A stretch of 62,470 nucleotides of DNA, filler included, from Candidatus Huberarchaeum crystalense (lineage in GTDB: Archaea; Huberarchaeota; Huberarchaeia; Huberarchaeales; Huberarchaeaceae), in assembly GCA_002790315.1 (NCBI GenBank). It is 9 parts of 9 records of this genome, joined end to end, with 100 filler letters (N's around TTAATTAATTAA, not from the genome) between each part and the next. Parts side by side here need not be neighbours in the genome. Positions count along the whole stretch, not along the records: positions 39,230 to 42,525 come from PFUW01000031.1; 8 more parts are not named here. One strand, written 5' to 3'. The notes under the pieces were generated by a model. It saw nothing but the letters and a program-made list of their open reading frames with translations, did no database searches and had not been told where the DNA came from. Below are positions 1,843-42,626 of this stretch, piece after piece. Position 1 is the stretch's first letter; every line of letters begins with the position of its first letter. The translations under genes were made by a program, and so were the position numbers.

Positions 1843-2065
1843 ATATTATTTATATAATTGAATATAATTATTTAAAAAGTGTATAAATAAAAAAAATAAT
1901 ATTTTAGACCAAAAATATTAATAATAAAAAGCATTGAAGTATTGAGGTATGCGCACATATTATCAAAAAATTTCTTTAATTTTTATATTTTGAGTTTTAG
2001 ATAAAAACAAGATGGCGCGCTCCTTTTTTCCTTACCTTATTCACATCTATATCCAAAAACTTTAA

Positions 2066-2139
2066 GGGGTTGTAGGATAACTTGGTTAGTCTTCTGGCTT
2101 TGGGAGCCAGCGATCCCGGTTCAAATCCGGGCAATCCCA
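2066..2139 (+). tRNA. tRNA-Pro(TGG)
   Basis: Acceptor GGGGTTG/CAATCCC, anticodon arm CTGGC-TT-TGG-GA-GCCAG, T arm CCCGG-TTCAAAT-CCGGG. Confidence 0.95.
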
Positions 2140-2202
2140 CCTATTACTTTGCTTTATAATGTCTTGCCTTCACAATTCTCAGTATATAACTAAAAACAAA
2201 CT

Positions 2203-2883
2203 ATGTCTCAAAAATTTGCGCAGATCATTAAAAAACTCAAAATATCTGCCAATCCTCTAACAATTAAAGGAATGACTCGATTTGGCATTTCAGGAAATAA
2301 TATGCTTGGTGTTAAGGTGCCTATTCTTCGAAAAATGGCGCGCAAACTTGGCCACAACCATCAACTTGCTCTTGAACTTTGGGAGTCAGGCATTCATGAG
2401 GCGCGCATATTAGCGAGTATGATTGATGAGATAAAAAAAGTTAGTGAAAAACAGATGGATATATGGGTAAAGGATTTTGATTCTTGGGATGTTTGCGATC
2501 AAGTTTGCTTGAATTTGTTTTGGCAACACAGGTCAGCTTATAAAAAGGCAATTAAATGGACAAATGCTAAAAACGAGTTTGAAAAAAGAGCAGGATTTGC
2601 GCTAATAGCAGTCCTTGCAGTCAAAGATAAAAAAGCCAATGATTCAAAATTTGAAGAGTTTTTGACTGTCATTGAAAGAGCACCAACAGACAAAAGAAAT
2701 TTTGTTAAAAAAGCAATGAATTGGGCACTTCGCCAAATTGGAAAACGCAACAAAGAGCTGAACAAAAAAGCAATTGCAACTGCAAAAAAAATACAAAAAA
2801 CAAACTCTAAAATTGCAAAATGGATTGCAAACAATGCAATAAAAGAGTTAGAGAGTGATATAGTTCAAAATAAATTAAACTAA
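2203..2883 (+). CDS. alkD: DNA alkylation repair protein, AlkD family
   Basis: LGVKVPILR, LWESGIHEARILA, FDSWDVCD, DKRNFVKKAMNWALRQIGKRN motifs. Confidence 0.9.
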   Translation: MSQKFAQIIKKLKISANPLTIKGMTRFGISGNNMLGVKVPILRKMARKLGHNHQLALELWESGIHEARILASMIDEIKKVSEKQMDIWVKDFDSWDVCDQVCLNLFWQHRSAYKKAIKWTNAKNEFEKRAGFALIAVLAVKDKKANDSKFEEFLTVIERAPTDKRNFVKKAMNWALRQIGKRNKELNKKAIATAKKIQKTNSKIAKWIANNAIKELESDIVQNKLN

Positions 2884-2903
2884 AAAACACCTTCAAAAAA
2901 TAT

Positions 2904-4247
2904 ATGAACCTTTTTGAGTTGCAAAAACTAAACGAAAAATACAAATGTTTTATAACTATTAACAAAAACTTTGAGCAAGAAGCAGAATTGTCAAAATCAA
3001 CACAAAAACCCTTGAGTAAATGGTATTTTTCAGTTAAAGATAATATTTGCACAGCAGGCTTACAAACCACAGCTGGCTCTAAAATTCTCGAAAATTATAT
3101 TCCTTCTTTTGATGCGACTGCAATTAAGAGAATAAAAAATGCAGGCGGGATTATTATTGGAAAAACAGCTCAGGATGAATTTGGATTTGGAAGTTTTTCA
3201 ACAAACTGCGCTTTTGGCGCGCCAAAAAATCCACATTCTCTTGAAAGAGTAACAGGTGGCTCGTCTGGTGGTGGTGCTTGTGCTACTGCTTTGCTTGAAG
3301 ACAATCATATTGCAATCGTTGAATCAACAGGCGGTTCAATTTCTTGTCCTGCTAGTTTTTGTGGTGTAATAGGATTAACTCCAACTTATGGGAGAGTTTC
3401 GCGCTTTGGTTTGATTGATTATGCATCTTCACTTGATAAAATAGGAATTATGGCTAAAAGTATTGAAAAAATTGCTCTAACTCTACAGATTATTGCAGGA
3501 AAAGACGAAAAAGAAGCAACAAGCTCTGAATTGCCTGTTCCAAACTATCTTGAAAAATTAAAAAAACCACCAAAAAAATTTAAAATCTGCCTGCCAAAAG
3601 AATATGTTGAGGGAATTGACCCCAAAATCGTTGAAATCATAAAAAACACTTTAAAAAAAATCAGTGATTTTGTTGAAGTTGAGGAAATTAGTTTACCTAT
3701 GACAAAATATGCCTTGCCTGTTTATTATATTTGCGCTATGGCAGAAGCAAGTACTAATTTGGCAAAATTCTGTGGATTGCGTTATGGTATGGAAAGCGAA
3801 AAAAAGGACAAAAAATACGACGCTTATTTTACAGAAATAAGAAGCAAATATTTTGGTGAAGAAGCCAAACGTCGCATTATTTTAGGAACATTCATACGGT
3901 CTGAGGGTTATGAGAGAAAATTTTATTTGCGCGCAATGAAAATTCGAACTTTGATTATTAATGAATTCAAAAACGCTTTTAAAAAATGCGATTTAATTAT
4001 TGCACCAACAATGCCATTTATTGCTCCATGCTTTGATGAAGTTGAAAAATTAACACCTCTTCAAAATTATCAAGCAGATATTCTTACAGTTGCTCCAAAT
4101 CTCGCAGGAATTCCAATGATTTCTTTACCTGTTGAGAAAATTAGTGGCTTGCCTGTTGGACTTCACGCAATGGCAAATTTTTTCAATGAAGAAAAACTGT
4201 TGCAATTTGCACAACTTCTTGAGAAAGAGAAATTGTTGGTATTTTAG
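2904..4247 (+). CDS. gatA: Asp/Glu-tRNA amidotransferase subunit A
   Basis: Amidase signature VKDNI, GGSSGG, STGGSI; NLAKFCGLRYG; FGEEAKRRIILGTF. Confidence 0.92.
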   Translation: MNLFELQKLNEKYKCFITINKNFEQEAELSKSTQKPLSKWYFSVKDNICTAGLQTTAGSKILENYIPSFDATAIKRIKNAGGIIIGKTAQDEFGFGSFSTNCAFGAPKNPHSLERVTGGSSGGGACATALLEDNHIAIVESTGGSISCPASFCGVIGLTPTYGRVSRFGLIDYASSLDKIGIMAKSIEKIALTLQIIAGKDEKEATSSELPVPNYLEKLKKPPKKFKICLPKEYVEGIDPKIVEIIKNTLKKISDFVEVEEISLPMTKYALPVYYICAMAEASTNLAKFCGLRYGMESEKKDKKYDAYFTEIRSKYFGEEAKRRIILGTFIRSEGYERKFYLRAMKIRTLIINEFKNAFKKCDLIIAPTMPFIAPCFDEVEKLTPLQNYQADILTVAPNLAGIPMISLPVEKISGLPVGLHAMANFFNEEKLLQFAQLLEKEKLLVF

Positions 4248-4281
4248 GGTAGATTAAAACAAAAATAATTATAATTTAATT

Positions 4282-5241
4282 TTAACTTTTANNNNNNNNN
4301 NNNNNNNNNNNNNNNNNNNNNNNNNNAACATTTTTAAGTTTTGTGCGAAGTTTTTCCTGTGTTTTTTCAACTTCTTTTTCTGCTTTTTTAATTATTTCGC
4401 TTACTTTATTGTGCAAATCCTCATAATGCTTTGCTGAAAAATTGAATTTATTTGCCTCTTTCTCTATTTTTTTATAATCTTGAAAAAGCTCTTCAATTGT
4501 TGCGATATCTTGTTCTGAAAACAAAGTTATGTTTTTCTTCATATTTTTTAATATTTGTGGGGTATCCTTAGGCAATCCAGGATAAATATTTTTAGAAAGA
4601 ATGACTGCTTGCACTGCTTTGATCATTGCCCAATATAGCGCGTCAATTGCTTCTTTAATTTTGTGCTGACTCATTTCCATAAATCCTTTTCCTACATAAA
4701 ACATGTTTATAATTCCTTCTTCTGAAGGTATAATTTCTCCGCGCAACAAGAGTTCTTTAAAAGGTACAAAGAAACCTGTTTCATAAATTGCAATGCCTGA
4801 ACGCAAAACATTTATAACAACAGGATCTGTGTTTTTTACTCCTTTCCAAAATTCAGTTAGCCCAACAACATTTGAGTGAATTGGTCGCTGTGTTTTTGTC
4901 TCAACAAGCACTTCTGCTTTGTATTTTTCAACACCAAGATCAAAAGAGCTTTTTATAGATGAGGTAAATGGAATGTTTATGTCATTTACAATAATCAACA
5001 CATCAATATCACTATCAGCAGTGTGTTTGTCTGTAGTAAATGACCCAAAAAGAATGACTGCTTGAACAAAATTATGATATGATTCTACTAATTTTTCTGC
5101 GAATTTATGAATAACAATCCCTTCTTTTATTCTAAGAACTTCGCTTGACACAGGTGATTGAGGCACACTAAACTCTAAATTTTCTTTTTTTGGTCTTTTA
5201 GTTTCCTTTTTTTTAACTATATTTTCAACCTTTTCAATCAT
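4282..5241 (-). CDS. Minimal nucleotidyltransferase fused to a HEPN-like helical domain
   Basis: ILFGSF..DSDIDVLII pol-beta motif, then AIDALYWAMIKAVQAVIL helix. The C-terminus crosses an N gap. Confidence 0.75.
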   Translation of the reverse strand: MIEKVENIVKKKETKRPKKENLEFSVPQSPVSSEVLRIKEGIVIHKFAEKLVESYHNFVQAVILFGSFTTDKHTADSDIDVLIIVNDINIPFTSSIKSSFDLGVEKYKAEVLVETKTQRPIHSNVVGLTEFWKGVKNTDPVVINVLRSGIAIYETGFFVPFKELLLRGEIIPSEEGIINMFYVGKGFMEMSQHKIKEAIDALYWAMIKAVQAVILSKNIYPGLPKDTPQILKNMKKNITLFSEQDIATIEELFQDYKKIEKEANKFNFSAKHYEDLHNKVSEIIKKAEKEVEKTQEKLRTKLKNVXXXXXXXXXXXXKS

Positions 5242-5464
5242 ATAATATTTATTATAGTATTTATAATTATAATTTATACAAAAATAAATATAACTTTGTG
5301 AATATTTTATTTTGTGTTTTGCTTTGTTAGCATAAAAAATACATTGCTTAAACCTTGTGAAAAAAAGGTGAATATTTTATTTTGTGTTTTGCTTTGAAAA
5401 ATACTTCTTTAACTATTGGTTTTAATAAACTATTCTAAAACATAGTATTTGAAAATTCTTTTGA

Positions 5465-6829
5465 TTAATTTTTAATATTTTTTACAACTTCTGTAAAAGA
5501 CAACATTTTTTCATCCTTTGAATCCAAATTTCTAAGAGTATATTTGTTTTCTCTCAACTCTTTTTCTCCAACAATTAGTGCAAACGGAATCTGCTCTTTA
5601 TTAGCATAGTCAAGCGCGCCTTTGAGTGATTTCTCAAACTCAATAATACATTTTATTCCTTCTTTTCGCAGCAAGGTTGCGATCTCTAAGCATTTTTTCT
5701 GGGTGTTGATAGAAATTATTAAAATTTTTGGAATTTTATCCTTGCTATTGATAAATATTTTTAAGCCCTTTTCTTTTAATGCTGTGAAAATTACATCTAA
5801 TCCGAAAGTTAGTCCTGTTGCTGGGTATTCTCTTTCACTTTGCAAAAATTTGCTTATCATTTTATCCCATCTACCGCCAGCAGAAATTGAACTCTTGATT
5901 TTAGAATTCTTTAAAAAAACCTCGCACACAAAGCCAGTATAATAACCAAGTCCGCGCGCCAAAGTTGGAGTGAAAATAATATCCTTATTTATGCCAAAAT
6001 AAGAACAATATTTAAAGAAATTTTGAAGATCTTCAAGCCCTTTCTGAGCTAAAGTATTATTTAATTTTTCTTTGAAAAAAATCAGTTTATCTTTGTTTGT
6101 CTGTTTTGTATTTGCAGTTTTAAGCAATAAAAATAAGGTATTAACCACATTTTCTGAAATTTCTTTTTCAAACAATTCTTTTTTAACATATTCCTCGCCA
6201 AACTTCTCAAGTTTGTCCAAAGAAAGAGCAACACCTGCAAACTTTTCAGACCCAACCCCACAAAATTCAAACAATCCAAAAAGAAAGTTTTTGTCGCTAA
6301 TTTGAACAAAAATAGGCAAGCACAGTTCATCAAAAACACTAAAAATTAAAGATATAAGTTCAGCGTCTGCTATTACTGATTTTATCCCAACAACATCAAC
6401 ATCACACTGTGTAAATTCTCTAAGTCGCCCTGGTTTTATTGGTCCGTCTCTAAAAACTTTTCCTATTTCATATCTTTTGAAAGGCAGTCTAAGGTTAGGA
6501 TTTAAGCCAAAAAGTTTTGCGAGTTTAAATGTTAATTCATATCTTAAGCATAATTCGCGCGCGCCTTGATCTTTAAGGTTATATGTCTCTTTTAGAATTT
6601 CTTCGCCACCCGCGTATTTGTTTGCCGCAACGTTGTAGTATTCTAAAATGCTTGTTTCAATTGGCTTAAACCCATAAATTTTGAAATTCTTTTTTAGAAT
6701 ATCTATAATCTTTTCCCTAACTATTTGCTCTTCTGGCAAGTACTCAGGAGTTCCTTTAAGTTGTTGTAATCGCTGATTTTTTTCAAAACTTTGAGTTGTA
6801 CAAAAATCATTATTTTCACTCTTTTCCAT
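5465..6829 (-). CDS. hisS: Histidine--tRNA ligase
   Basis: KGTPEYLP, LRYELT, VFRDGPIKPGRLREFTQCDVD, ARGLGYYTG, GGRWD. Start moved to ATG 6829 because the longer ORF overlaps tRNA-His. Confidence 0.95.
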   Translation of the reverse strand: MEKSENNDFCTTQSFEKNQRLQQLKGTPEYLPEEQIVREKIIDILKKNFKIYGFKPIETSILEYYNVAANKYAGGEEILKETYNLKDQGARELCLRYELTFKLAKLFGLNPNLRLPFKRYEIGKVFRDGPIKPGRLREFTQCDVDVVGIKSVIADAELISLIFSVFDELCLPIFVQISDKNFLFGLFEFCGVGSEKFAGVALSLDKLEKFGEEYVKKELFEKEISENVVNTLFLLLKTANTKQTNKDKLIFFKEKLNNTLAQKGLEDLQNFFKYCSYFGINKDIIFTPTLARGLGYYTGFVCEVFLKNSKIKSSISAGGRWDKMISKFLQSEREYPATGLTFGLDVIFTALKEKGLKIFINSKDKIPKILIISINTQKKCLEIATLLRKEGIKCIIEFEKSLKGALDYANKEQIPFALIVGEKELRENKYTLRNLDSKDEKMLSFTEVVKNIKN

Positions 6830-6929
6830 TTTTAACCTCTTGTGAAAAATGTTTTGAAAAACTATTTTTCCCGATCTTGTTTTTTTCTCTGAAAGGACTA
6901 TTTTTCCCATTTTCTCTTTTTTCTTTAAG

Positions 6930-7001
6930 GGCAAACGGCGAGAATTGAACTCGCTTCACAAGAGCCACAATCTTGTATGTTACCAATACACTACGTCTGC
7001 C
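6930..7001 (-). tRNA. tRNA-His(GTG) with encoded G-1
   Basis: Reverse complement G-GCAGACG...CAAGA-TT-GTG-GC-TCTTG...GCGAG-TTCAATT-CTCGC-CGTTTGC-C. Confidence 0.93.
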
Positions 7002-7256
7002 ACTATTTAATGATTTGAACTCCATTAATGTTTTTTTAATATTTCTGCGAATGAAATTGAATACAATACTTATAATTATAGATTTAAAAATTTCAGAAAT
7101 AAACTTAAAAAATGTTTTATTGATGAACACAGCCAGCAGTTATCCTGCTAGCGTTCTCCGAACTTAATAAAATTGTTGCTATCATAATATATTTAGCAAA
7201 TAGTTTAAAAAGAACAAACAAAAATCAAAACTTAGATTTATTTACCACAAACAAGA

Positions 7257-39452: not shown

Positions 39453-42401
39453 CAAATACATCTATATATACACATATAACATTTTCTAAAAAATGTTTAT
39501 ATAATTTACACGAAGTGTAAAATGTGCATATAAAAGTTTGTAAAACAAACTTTTCTCGTTAATTTCTGCAAAGCTGTTTGTTGGATTGTTAGGTTTATGC
39601 AACGATGAAGGGCGTGGCAAGCTGCGATAAGCTGAGAGAAGGTGCAAGCAACCTATAATTCTCAGATTCCTGAATAAGCATACTTATACTCATTGAGTAT
39701 ATTTCGTAAGAAAAGTCAACGCACAGAATTGAAATATCTTAGTACGTGCAGGAAAAGAAATCAAAAGAGATGCTGTAAGTAAGTAGACTGAAATCAGCAC
39801 AGGGCAAACTGAATCTGAAAAGAGATGTGGTGAGACATAAGGAAAACACAAGAATAATAAACTTGTTTGGAACAACAGATGATACAGGGTGATAATCCCG
39901 TAATTATTTGCGTGTTTTTCTGTCTTAAAGAGTATATTTGGTTTGAATTCCAGATAGAATGGGGGTTATTAACCTCCAACCCTAAAAATTAGCATAAAAC
40001 CGATAGCAAAAAGGTAGCGTGAGCGAAAACTGAAAAGATCTCTTGGTAGAGGGTGAAAAGTACATGAAAGCAAGCAGTGATAGTAAGTCAAAGTATGAAA
40101 GAGAATGTAAAATTCTCAATATTTTGGCGTTCGTTCTGGATAACGAGGCAAGGACTTGGTCTTAGCGGCAAGCTGAAAAGCGTAGCGAAAGCAAGTGTGA
40201 AAGTGCGTTTAGTCGTTAGGGCCTGACCTGAAGCCGGGCGATCTATTCTTGAGTAAGATGAATGGGAGTATATAACTTCCTTGAGGTCTGAAGGTATTTC
40301 TAGGGAGATGCTATAACTTAAGAATAGGAGCAAAATACCAATCGAGCTCGGCGATATCTGGGTCCATCTGAAAGATCCCATAGGATCGTTTTATTGTAGA
40401 ATTATTTTTGTAGAGAAACTGATTGAGTCGCCTCGGAGAGAAATCTCTAGCACTCTGTCAAACTCCGAATAGAATAATTTGTTCAATAGAAAGGAGGCGT
40501 TCGGGATAAACTTGAACACCAAAAGTGGAACAAAACACCCTAAAGTTAAGGTCCCAAAATAGCATCTAAGTGAAAAAGATTTTATTTTTCTAAAACAGCG
40601 AGGATATAAGCTCAGAAGCAGCTATTATCTAAGGAGTGCGTAACAGCTCACTCGTCTAGAAAAATAAAATCGACAACGGGACTAAGGTGCTTACCGATAC
40701 TTTAGTTCTTTTGCTGTAAAGCAATTGAAGATAGGATGGCGTGGTGATGGGGGAGAAGTTGGGTCGTAAGATCCAATAGACCTGTCACTAGTGAAAATCT
40801 TGCCGATAGTAGCAGAAATTAGCGTGAGAATCGCTAAGGTCTTAAGGGATAGGATTTCTTCCCAATGATCATCAAGGAAGAGTTAGTCGGTCTTAAGAAA
40901 AGGCATAATTTGCCGTATCAAAAAGGAAATAGGTTAATATTCCTATACTTGTGCACTACACGCGGCAACGCAAGGTGTAGTTTTGACAAATTAGGCAACC
41001 CTTTTGCAAACGCATTTGATAATACTCTGGAGAGTTGCAATAACGAGAAGGAGTAAAAAATAATGTGGCCTCGCAAGAGGTATAGGGTGCGCCAAGTTTT
41101 CTTAAAAAGAAACTGCGCAAGAATGTGCATAAACCGTACCAAAACCTTTACAGGTTCCCTGGCTGAGAATGCTAAGACCGTCGTGTTAATTTTGCAGAAG
41201 GAAATAAGCAAAATAGTTCTGTATCTTAGGTATAAAGAATGCCCTTGCTTGCGAAAGTGAGGGTCTATGTAAAAAGATCTGCTGGACTGTTTAACAAAAA
41301 CACAGGTGGCTGCTAAGTAGTAATGCTTTGTATAGCCGCCGACGTCTGCCCAGTGGGAGTGTGTTAAAGCTGGTTTCAACCAGCCTAAGCCCTTCTAAAC
41401 GGCGGGATTATTTTTGAGTCTCTTAAGGTAGCGAAATCCATTGTTATTTGATTGATGACATGTCTGAAGACGTAACAAGGTAGATGCTGTCTTCTGCATA
41501 AACGCGGTGAACACACTTTTTCATGTGTAAAAGCTGAAGAATTTCGATGGGACGAGAAGACCCCATGGAGCTCTGCGGCAATCTGATGTTATAAATTGTT
41601 CTTAGGTGTTTAGAATAGGAAGAAAGCTTCGAAGCAATTTCGCTAGAAATTGTAGAGCTGACAGTGTAATACTTCCCACTTAAGAACAGTTTGTTTATCC
41701 AGAAATGGAAACAGCTTTAGATGGGCCGCTCGACTGGGGCGGGAAACTGTTAAAAAGATATCAACAGTGTCCAAAGGTCAGCTTAAGAGGTTTAGAAATC
41801 CTCTGAAAAGTACAAAGGCAAAAGCTGATTTGACAGGATTCTGCATAGTAAGGAATCCTGGGACGAAAGTCCGGCTTAGAGAACGGTATGTGTATATTAA
41901 TAATTGCATACCCTAACAGAAAAGCTACCCTGGGGATAATTAGGCTGTCTTGGGAGAGAGTACATATCGACCCCAAGGATTGCTGTTTCGCCTTCAACTC
42001 TGAGTTTCCTGGCAGTGCAGTAGCTGCCAAGGGTGCGGGTGCTAACCAATTAAAACTCATCGTTAGTCGGGTTCATAACGGCGCGAGCCAGTTAGGTTTC
42101 TATCTGTCGAGATTGTAGTTATCTGAGAGTAACGGAATCATAGTACGAAAGGAACAGATTCTGGACGCCAACTGTGTATTGGTCATCGAAAGGTGTTTTG
42201 CCAAGTAGCAGCGCGTTATATGAATAAGAACTGAAAGCATCTAAGTTCGAAGTCATCCTTAAAAATAGATAACTGAGATCCTTGTAAATGACGAGGTTAA
42301 TAGGACACGAGTGTAAATATTGTAAGATATTAAGCTAAGTGTTACTAAGTTCTCAAATAAATTAACGAGATTTACATATGCAGTATATATAGATGTATTT
42401 G
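39453..42401 (+). repeat. Long-range inverted repeats flanking 23S (processing stem)
   Basis: 39453-39471 pairs perfectly with 42383-42401 (19 bp); 39525-31 with 42376-82; 39554-65 with 42359-70. Confidence 0.85.
39560..42365 (+). rRNA. rrl: 23S rRNA, divergent, not linked to 16S or 5S
   Basis: GATGAAGGGCGTGGCAAGCTGCGATAAGC near the 5' end, GTPase centre AGAAGCAGC..GCGTAACAGCTCA, TAAGGTAGCGAAA, P-loop GACTGGGGCGG, GAGTACATATCGAC, CTGAAAGCATCTAAG. Ends approximate. Confidence 0.97.
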
Positions 42402-42626
42402 TGAAGATGAATTATTTTTACAGAATAAGTAGAGTTGACACTTTTCTTTAATTGCTATTATCTATTTTATCTAAATATGATTAAAGTTTTTTATTGCTTA
42501 CAATACTTATATTGTCATTGTTGTTNNNNNNNNNNNNNNNNNNNNNNNNNNNNNNNNNNNNNNNNNNNNTTAATTAATTAANNNNNNNNNNNNNNNNNNN
42601 NNNNNNNNNNNNNNNNNNNNNNNNNA

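Follow-up and report, generated by a model that had tools for sequence, protein, structure and literature searches.

Helix 69 (H69) of the large-subunit (LSU) rRNA spans nucleotides 1906-1924 in Escherichia coli numbering and contains pseudouridines (Psi) at 1911, 1915, and 1917 (PMC2875026). The hairpin forms bridge B2a; according to PMC1190176, nucleotides 1913, 1914, and 1918 contact helix 44 (h44) of the 16S rRNA, and the A-site tRNA is contacted by 1913-1915. A1913 is among the most conserved ribosomal nucleotides, in the central intersubunit bridge beside the decoding adenines and the A-site tRNA, and its role has until now been probed only by laboratory mutants. In this study, we analyzed H69 in a 62,470-nucleotide stretch of DNA, hereafter the window, which joins parts of nine records of the archaeon Candidatus Huberarchaeum crystalense (GCA_002790315.1). 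The 23S rRNA in the window carries U in place of both A1913 and C1914. This variant is genuine and not an assembly error, as confirmed by six letter-identical assemblies, and the hairpin is a rare natural variant of a known element.

Helix 69 in described ribosomes and in the window

Mutants of E. coli provide the functional background. In the mutant survey of PMC1190176, A1912G, A1919G, and Psi1917C strongly inhibited translation, and A1916G impaired the formation of 50S subunits or 70S ribosomes; Psi1911C, A1913G, C1914A, Psi1915C, and A1918G are given there as mutants with no clear phenotypes. The two substitutions of the window have been made individually at the same positions, and those mutants supply the sole functional data on them. 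C1914U increased frameshifting and stop read-through (O'Connor and Dahlberg 1995, cited in PMC1190176), and A1913U altered the incorporation of tRNAs for specific codons, e.g. AUA (Ortiz-Meoz and Green 2011, cited in PMC11156624). The E. coli mutants are single changes in a bacterial ribosome that is otherwise wild-type, whereas the window holds both changes together, naturally, in an archaeal ribosome and along with many other changes.

H69 of the window occupies the same place in domain IV as canonical H69 of 23S/28S rRNA, directly before the conserved UUAAGGUAGC. Positions 41399-41433 read ACGGC GGGAT TATTTTT GAGTCTC TTAAGGTAGCG. In the cmscan alignment, GGGAUU-AUUUUUG-AGUCUC matched the consensus GgGGGU-AACUaUG-ACCCuC without gaps and with the posterior probability symbol '*'. 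The preliminary description of this DNA, made from the sequence alone, had reported a UAUUUUU loop on a stem that still pairs, and both points were borne out by this alignment and by the identical assemblies. The stem consists of G-C, G.U, G-C, A-U, and U.G pairs, to which a U1911-A1919 pair is added, and the minimum-energy fold contains six pairs. The 19-nt hairpin and the 7-nt loop are those of canonical H69; U1911, A1912, U1915, U1917, G1918, and A1919 are retained, and U at 1913, 1914, and 1916 is different. The positions that are pseudouridines in canonical H69 (1911, 1915, and 1917) are all U. Two G.U pairs and one A-U pair replace G-C pairs of the canonical stem, and the predicted energy of the hairpin is -2.5 kcal/mol, versus -6.9 kcal/mol for a canonical archaeal and -6.4 kcal/mol for a bacterial H69.

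The preliminary description had counted three substitutions, A1913U, C1914U, and A1916U. The first two concern conserved positions and stand as described, but other archaea have A, C, or G at 1916, which is naturally variable. The role that it assigned to H69, forming bridge B2a and contacting the A-site tRNA, agrees with PMC1190176, and two nucleotides of this contact region, 1913 and 1914, are altered in the window. The archaeon keeps the residues that E. coli cannot lose (A1912, U1917, and A1919); it has changed two positions that are dispensable in E. coli and one that varies among archaea. In an observation apart from the hairpin, the otherwise invariant CCUUG that follows H69 contains a C>A change at 41440 (approximately E. 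coli 1942), giving CCAUUG. The same A is found at the equivalent position of a metagenome-assembled genome (MAG) of the Rickettsiaceae (L045), which has a UAUUCUU loop.

The E. coli numbers were derived from the published limits of H69 (PMC2875026) and the names of the mutants (PMC1190176), which gives 41404 = G1906, 41409 = U1911, 41410 = A1912, 41411 = U1913, 41412 = U1914, 41413 = U1915, 41414 = U1916, 41415 = U1917, 41416 = G1918, 41417 = A1919, and 41422 = C1924. They were reproduced by alignment to a bacterial 23S rRNA (L196), calibrated at H69 = 1906 and the sarcin-ricin loop = 2654; positions far from these two points are only approximate. L196 is a circular 2911-nt record labelled as an E. 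coli plasmid, although it contains 23S rRNA only and its 5' end, in our judgement, does not resemble that of E. coli 23S rRNA. It is probably an artefact or a contaminant of that assembly.

Coordinates of the 23S rRNA gene and of the H69 features in the window
Feature	Position	Strand	Basis
Complete archaeal 23S (LSU) rRNA gene, 2811 nt	39557..42367	+	RF02540
Helix 69 hairpin (E. coli 1906-1924), GGGAU-UAUUUUUGA-GUCUC	41404..41422	+	cmscan consensus-structure alignment
Loop 1911-1917, UAUUUUU (canonical UAACUNU)	41409..41415	+	Alignment; identical in three metagenome and two metatranscriptome contigs
A1912 kept; essential in E. coli (PMC1190176)	41410	+	cmscan alignment
A1913U and C1914U	41411..41412	+	Columns invariant in 29 other archaea
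U at 1916, naturally variable (A, C, or G in other archaea)	41414	+	Archaeal comparison
U1917, G1918, and A1919 kept; 1917 and 1919 essential in E. coli (PMC1190176)	41415..41417	+	

Support for the variant and for its contig

The 23S rRNA gene is full-length: in a covariance search with Rfam models, it matched RF02540 over model positions 1-2987 with 1929.9 bits against a gathering score of 50. This score is low for the family; the 23S rRNA of G123, a second archaeon with U1913 and U1914 that is described below, scored 2606.5 bits. The gene was the single 23S match found in the whole genome, which has a size of at least 453 kb, is 78% complete, and contains 31% guanine plus cytosine (GC), versus 40% in the 23S rRNA. 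Its position, alone on a 3.3-kb contig (G000:C31, 3296 nt) of a MAG divided into 42 contigs, would allow for an artefact, as would the nature of the support, which consists of contigs and not of raw reads.

Independent assemblies point to the opposite. Three metagenome contigs were 100% identical to the window with H69 included, L061 and L126 across 2622 nt apiece and L146 across 629 nt. At least half of the sampled 23S words were present in 24 public runs, namely 18 DNA runs (share 1.00) and six metatranscriptome runs (0.90-0.98). The DNA runs came from groundwater or aquifers, and the 24 runs together carried 20 study codes from 2014-2020, which possibly represent few campaigns. For two of the DNA runs (X1 and X8, word share 1.00), no contig covering H69 was displayed, and the pieces shown were short and belonged to other organisms; records are filtered out of this display, so this carries no weight. 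RNA run X19 contained a 2784-nt contig over 39605-42364 with no other letters, no gaps, and a k-mer depth of 76.8. A 1368-nt contig over 40928-42295 in RNA run X23 showed no differences at a k-mer depth of 1212.8. The two RNA contigs belong to different studies and years, and both extend more than 470 nt beyond H69 on either side.

The six assemblies agree letter for letter; agreement was judged on contigs, in which minor alleles would be hidden. The preliminary description had considered a homopolymer error in the T run, or a canonical UAAC in the reads, and neither appeared in the metagenome and RNA-run contigs. Illumina sequencing is not prone to errors in a stretch of five T, which also counts against an artefact. 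The RNA contigs have the same letters as the DNA, and thus there is no sign of base-changing editing. The presence of these contigs in RNA libraries, where the 23S rRNA is abundant, indicates that the gene is probably expressed.

Several observations connect the contig to the rest of the genome. Its last 90 nt (window 42429-42518) are identical to the end of contig C38 (G000:C38:2379-2468). Downstream of this overlap, the sequence in metagenome contig L126 is AT-rich and repeat-like and resembles G000:C2:26285-26359 (75% similarity). The overlap and this continuation may represent a repeated gene or a branch point of the assembly. A box C/D guide RNA on another contig (window 56079-56140) has exact 10-nt and 9-nt complements in the 23S rRNA, starting at 41183 and 41923, which ties the 23S contig to the genome. 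The 16S rRNA gene, on a 19.6-kb contig of typical composition outside the window, is divergent and AT-shifted like the 23S rRNA. The C38 overlap, the C2 resemblance, the divergence of the 16S rRNA, and the guide complements suggest that the 23S contig does belong to this genome. The 16S rRNA gene (G000:C20:5184-6644) and the 23S contig (window 39230-42525) appear unlinked: no 23S rRNA was found in the 1500 nt after the 16S rRNA, and no 16S rRNA in the 327 nt preceding the 23S rRNA.

Distribution of the altered loop and the state of 16S h44

The preliminary description had proposed an LSU alignment across DPANN archaea; among the sequences compared here, replacement of A1913 and C1914 is rare. 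In all of about 30 archaea sampled, positions 1912-1915 read AACU and position 1917 is U. A pattern with fixed flanks and A1912, U1917, and A1919 was then searched in 401 archaeal genomes, of which 187 matched; 150 matches were listed and 70 further ones were not, and two of those listed look like chance matches in one genome (G356). Among the 150 matches listed, A1913 is missing only in the window and in G123; C1914A occurs in G266, and U1915C in G095, G286, and G370. A scan of 185,579 species with one genome each found 14 other loci with a nucleotide other than A at 1913, none of them with UAUUUUU. This number is a lower bound, since the flank used (ACGSCGG...CYTAAGGTAGC) misses some lineages, including G123. 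Most of the other natural variants at 1913 carry single substitutions, such as UAUCUAU in a Pacearchaeota MAG and in a MAG of ANME-2 archaea; others have UAUUCUU (the Rickettsiaceae MAG), UAUUCCU (a Halobacteriovorax MAG), or AAUUCUU (G634). Several of them lie on short MAG contigs. In the large DPANN phylum that contains the Pacearchaeota match, 3 of 401 genomes have a nucleotide other than A at 1913. No natural replacement of A1913 or C1914 in archaea was described in the titles and abstracts listed by literature searches on H69 variants.

In metagenomes, at least 117 rows from several environmental lineages showed a nucleotide other than A at 1913, with UACCUAU in at least 52, UAUCUAU in at least 21, and other loops in the rest; our impression is that some rows may be organellar or eukaryotic. 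The UAUUUUU rows among these listed matches all come from the same organism as the window. A recurrent type with A1913C, GGCCU-UACCUAU-AAGGGUC followed by GGAAUACCUUGGCCGUUAAAUG, is found among L048-L159 and makes up most of the UACCUAU rows. In the 23S rRNAs of four sampled small-genome archaea (L015, L020, L030, and L031, from G051, G057, G008, and G043), insertions occur right after H69, within or just after UUAAGG, and are probably rRNA introns.

Loops in which both 1913 and 1914 differ tend to take the form A-UU-YY-U, which is found in five lineages: AUUUUU in the window, AUUCCU in G123 and the Halobacteriovorax MAG, and AUUCUU in G634 and the Rickettsiaceae MAG. G634 belongs to the large DPANN phylum of G412, and the genomes of the window, G123, and G634 have sizes of 0.45-0.7 Mb. 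G123 is a 600-kb archaeon (91% complete) with a 16S-tRNA-23S-RNase P cluster on a 336-kb contig, and its H69 reads GGGAU-UAUUCCU-GAGUCUC. The stem and U1913/U1914 are identical to those of the window, but C1915 and C1916 in the loop are different. In the stretch inspected (L194, G123:C1:5000-13000), the genes for 16S rRNA, tRNA, 23S rRNA, and RNase P RNA are directly consecutive on the minus strand at 2060-7043.

G123 belongs to a GTDB phylum other than that of the window; the phylum has 31 genomes, and 9 of its 10 readable H69 sequences are canonical. No other members of the window's phylum were among the genomes compared, and the closest 23S identity to any sampled archaeon was ~60-62%. G123 paired with G057, which has a canonical H69, with 100% support in the Shimodaira-Hasegawa-like approximate likelihood ratio test (SH-aLRT). 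A clade of the window and G123 was not rejected by the approximately unbiased (AU) test (p-AU 0.44 for 23S and 0.26 for 16S), and a clade of the window, G123, and G057 lay 18.6 log-likelihood units above a short free search. A single 9-row clade of the 16S tree, supported at 96%, contained both the window and G123. Of the 128 deviations of the window described below, 11 are also found in G123, and 10 in each of L027 and L030. These quick 23S and 16S trees, which long-branch effects make unsafe, neither showed nor rejected that the window and G123 are direct kin.

The 16S rRNA of the genome bears on a second proposal of the preliminary description, namely that the decoding interface is altered, possibly together with h44. 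In a cmscan alignment of the 16S 3' end, the decoding nucleotides of h44 are canonical: A1408, A1492, A1493, U1406.U1495, and C1407:G1494 are kept, and the A1409:U1491 pair found here is shared by many archaea. However, C1404:G1497 and G1405:C1496, which lie just under the A site, are replaced by U1404:A1497 and A1405:U1496, and these compensatory swaps retain pairing. Among 27 other archaea, U1404:A1497 occurred once and A1405:U1496 four times, but never both. Exactly this double swap is present in G123, the one further archaeon of the sample with U1913/U1914. The proposal is supported in part: the H69 tip and two pairs of h44 are altered, and the h44 decoding nucleotides are not.

Variation at this h44 site is frequent in the phylum of G123. 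Among the 12 of its 31 genomes with a match, UA occurs in two, GA in three, CA in one, and CG in six; a further match, GC, is found in G184. The h44 variation in G224 is combined with a canonical H69, and three lineages without A1913, represented by the ANME-2, Rickettsiaceae, and gamma-proteobacterial MAGs, have a canonical h44. In view of this hot spot, G224, and the three lineages with canonical h44, shared ancestry explains the co-occurrence at least as well as coupling does, and shared descent or a lineage habit appears more likely than functional coupling. The double swap of G123 is the one result that keeps the idea of an h44 partner alive. No match to the G123 23S rRNA at H69 was obtained in family f113 of the same phylum, whose five genomes include one with this h44 swap.

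Probable origin and predicted consequences of the altered loop

The variant is best explained as a genuine and fixed change of the H69 tip that has been tolerated during drift in an ultra-reduced, AT-rich, and fast-evolving groundwater archaeon, and we consider this reading probable. Relaxed purifying selection together with drift would be the most likely cause, and AT pressure may have made an added contribution to C1914U. The same process would have changed ~13% of the otherwise conserved 23S positions. The 23S rRNA of the window is the most divergent of those sampled. It differs at 27 of the 237 columns that are invariant in 29 other archaea (11.4%; next worst 4.5%) and at 109 of 861 columns at a 93% threshold (next worst 7.6%). 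When G123 was included, the window deviated in 128 of the 962 columns with at least 90% conservation; 95 of the 128 changes run from GC to AT. Its terminal branch in the 23S tree has 1.1 substitutions per site, 13 times the median of 0.084; in the 16S tree, the branch has 0.72 versus a median of 0.11. Its RpoB shares only 34-39% identity with the listed matches from 400 other archaeal genomes. By our own arithmetic, the probability of two or more changes among five conserved loop positions is ~0.13 at p = 0.133 per conserved column, so the change in H69 is not an outlier for this 23S rRNA.

Several results weigh against drift as the explanation. A1913U is an A-to-U transversion, one of only five A>T changes among the 128 deviations, and AT pressure therefore does not explain it. 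A1913 is also far more conserved than the average conserved column: across 185,579 species, the flank pattern used revealed just 14 further loci without it. Pyrimidine loops of a similar kind are found again in unrelated lineages, which hints at a selected alternative over random decay. The rRNA of G123 has 52% GC and its 23S rRNA is far less divergent (2606 bits), yet it carries U1913/U1914 on the same stem; thus AT pressure is not the cause there, and extreme divergence is not required for this tip. The evidence of expression comes from contigs in RNA libraries.

The hairpin scaffold (the stem, U1911-A1919, A1912, U1917, and a purine at 1918) is kept, with the tip positions 1913, 1914, and 1916 changed to U. 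U1913 is a smaller base and probably cannot make the contacts of adenine with h44 and the A-site tRNA. The weaker stem and U1913 together may result in a softer bridge B2a. By analogy with C1914U and with A1913U, which slows the acceptance of certain tRNAs in E. coli, decoding is predicted to be less uniform or less accurate, with somewhat higher stop read-through and frameshifting unless compensated. The genome encodes an eRF1-family factor.

The variant is a rare natural test of A1913, indicating that a natural ribosome can do without this contact, at least that of a tiny, slow-living, and probably host-dependent archaeon. It adds to the view that even the core translation machinery is loosened when genomes become extremely reduced. 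The surprise of a natural ribosome without A1913 and C1914 is tempered by the overall decay of the rRNA in the window. The loop also provides a ready sequence for transplantation, by which the contribution of A1913 and C1914 to fidelity, subunit joining, and termination could be assessed.

The main alternative, which is less probable, is that A1912-UU-YY-U1917 is a selected, second workable tip for this bridge that has evolved jointly with h44, tRNAs, factors of release or recycling, or additional pseudouridines. Such a pyrimidine-only design would have evolved repeatedly in Archaea and Bacteria with a host-dependent life or a reduced genome. The occurrence of loops of this type in the window, G123, G634, and the Rickettsiaceae and Halobacteriovorax MAGs is consistent with it, as are the H69 stem and h44 double swap shared by the window and G123. 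A pseudouridine synthase of the TruB/Cbf5 type is encoded in the genome, so modification of the U-rich loop is conceivable. However, no partner changes consistently: h44 is canonical in the Rickettsiaceae, gamma-proteobacterial, and ANME-2 MAGs, and it varies next to a canonical H69 in G224. The window and G123 may be kin, since their clade was not rejected and the 9-row clade received 96% support, and the bacterial cases are single MAG contigs. Moreover, a scan of the whole genome for H/ACA guide RNAs directed at the loop (two arms of 7 nt in which wobble pairs were accepted, a lower and an upper stem, and at 13-16 nt an ACA/ATA box) returned 25 candidates, all G.U-rich or of low complexity and none convincing. 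If this alternative were true, ribosomes could decode without the 'universal' A1913 contact, and in the window and G123 the change of the tip would accompany a remodelled h44 (U1404:A1497 and A1405:U1496).

It seems improbable that the loop is an escape from an attacker of H69, either a nuclease or an antibiotic of the H69/h44 pocket, to which changes at 1913/1914 would render the ribosome insensitive. H69 is a known target: aminoglycosides, capreomycin, and thermorubin are reported to bind at H69/B2a, and a bacterial nuclease that cleaves eukaryotic H69 is described in PMC13189344. Nevertheless, neither the genome nor the habitat contains a pointer to an attacker, and the change lies within the general divergence of the rRNA. 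Least credible of all is an artefact, whether an error of the assembly or consensus, a contig binned into the wrong genome, or a defunct rRNA copy, given the agreement of the assemblies, the full-length and abundant single 23S rRNA, and the ties of its contig to the genome.

Deviations of the 23S rRNA also occur outside H69. In domain V (window 41940-42070), near the peptidyl-transferase center, columns conserved at 90% or more are changed at the approximate E. coli positions 2454, 2457, 2498, 2505, 2508, 2556, and 2580, as numbered by the calibrated alignment.

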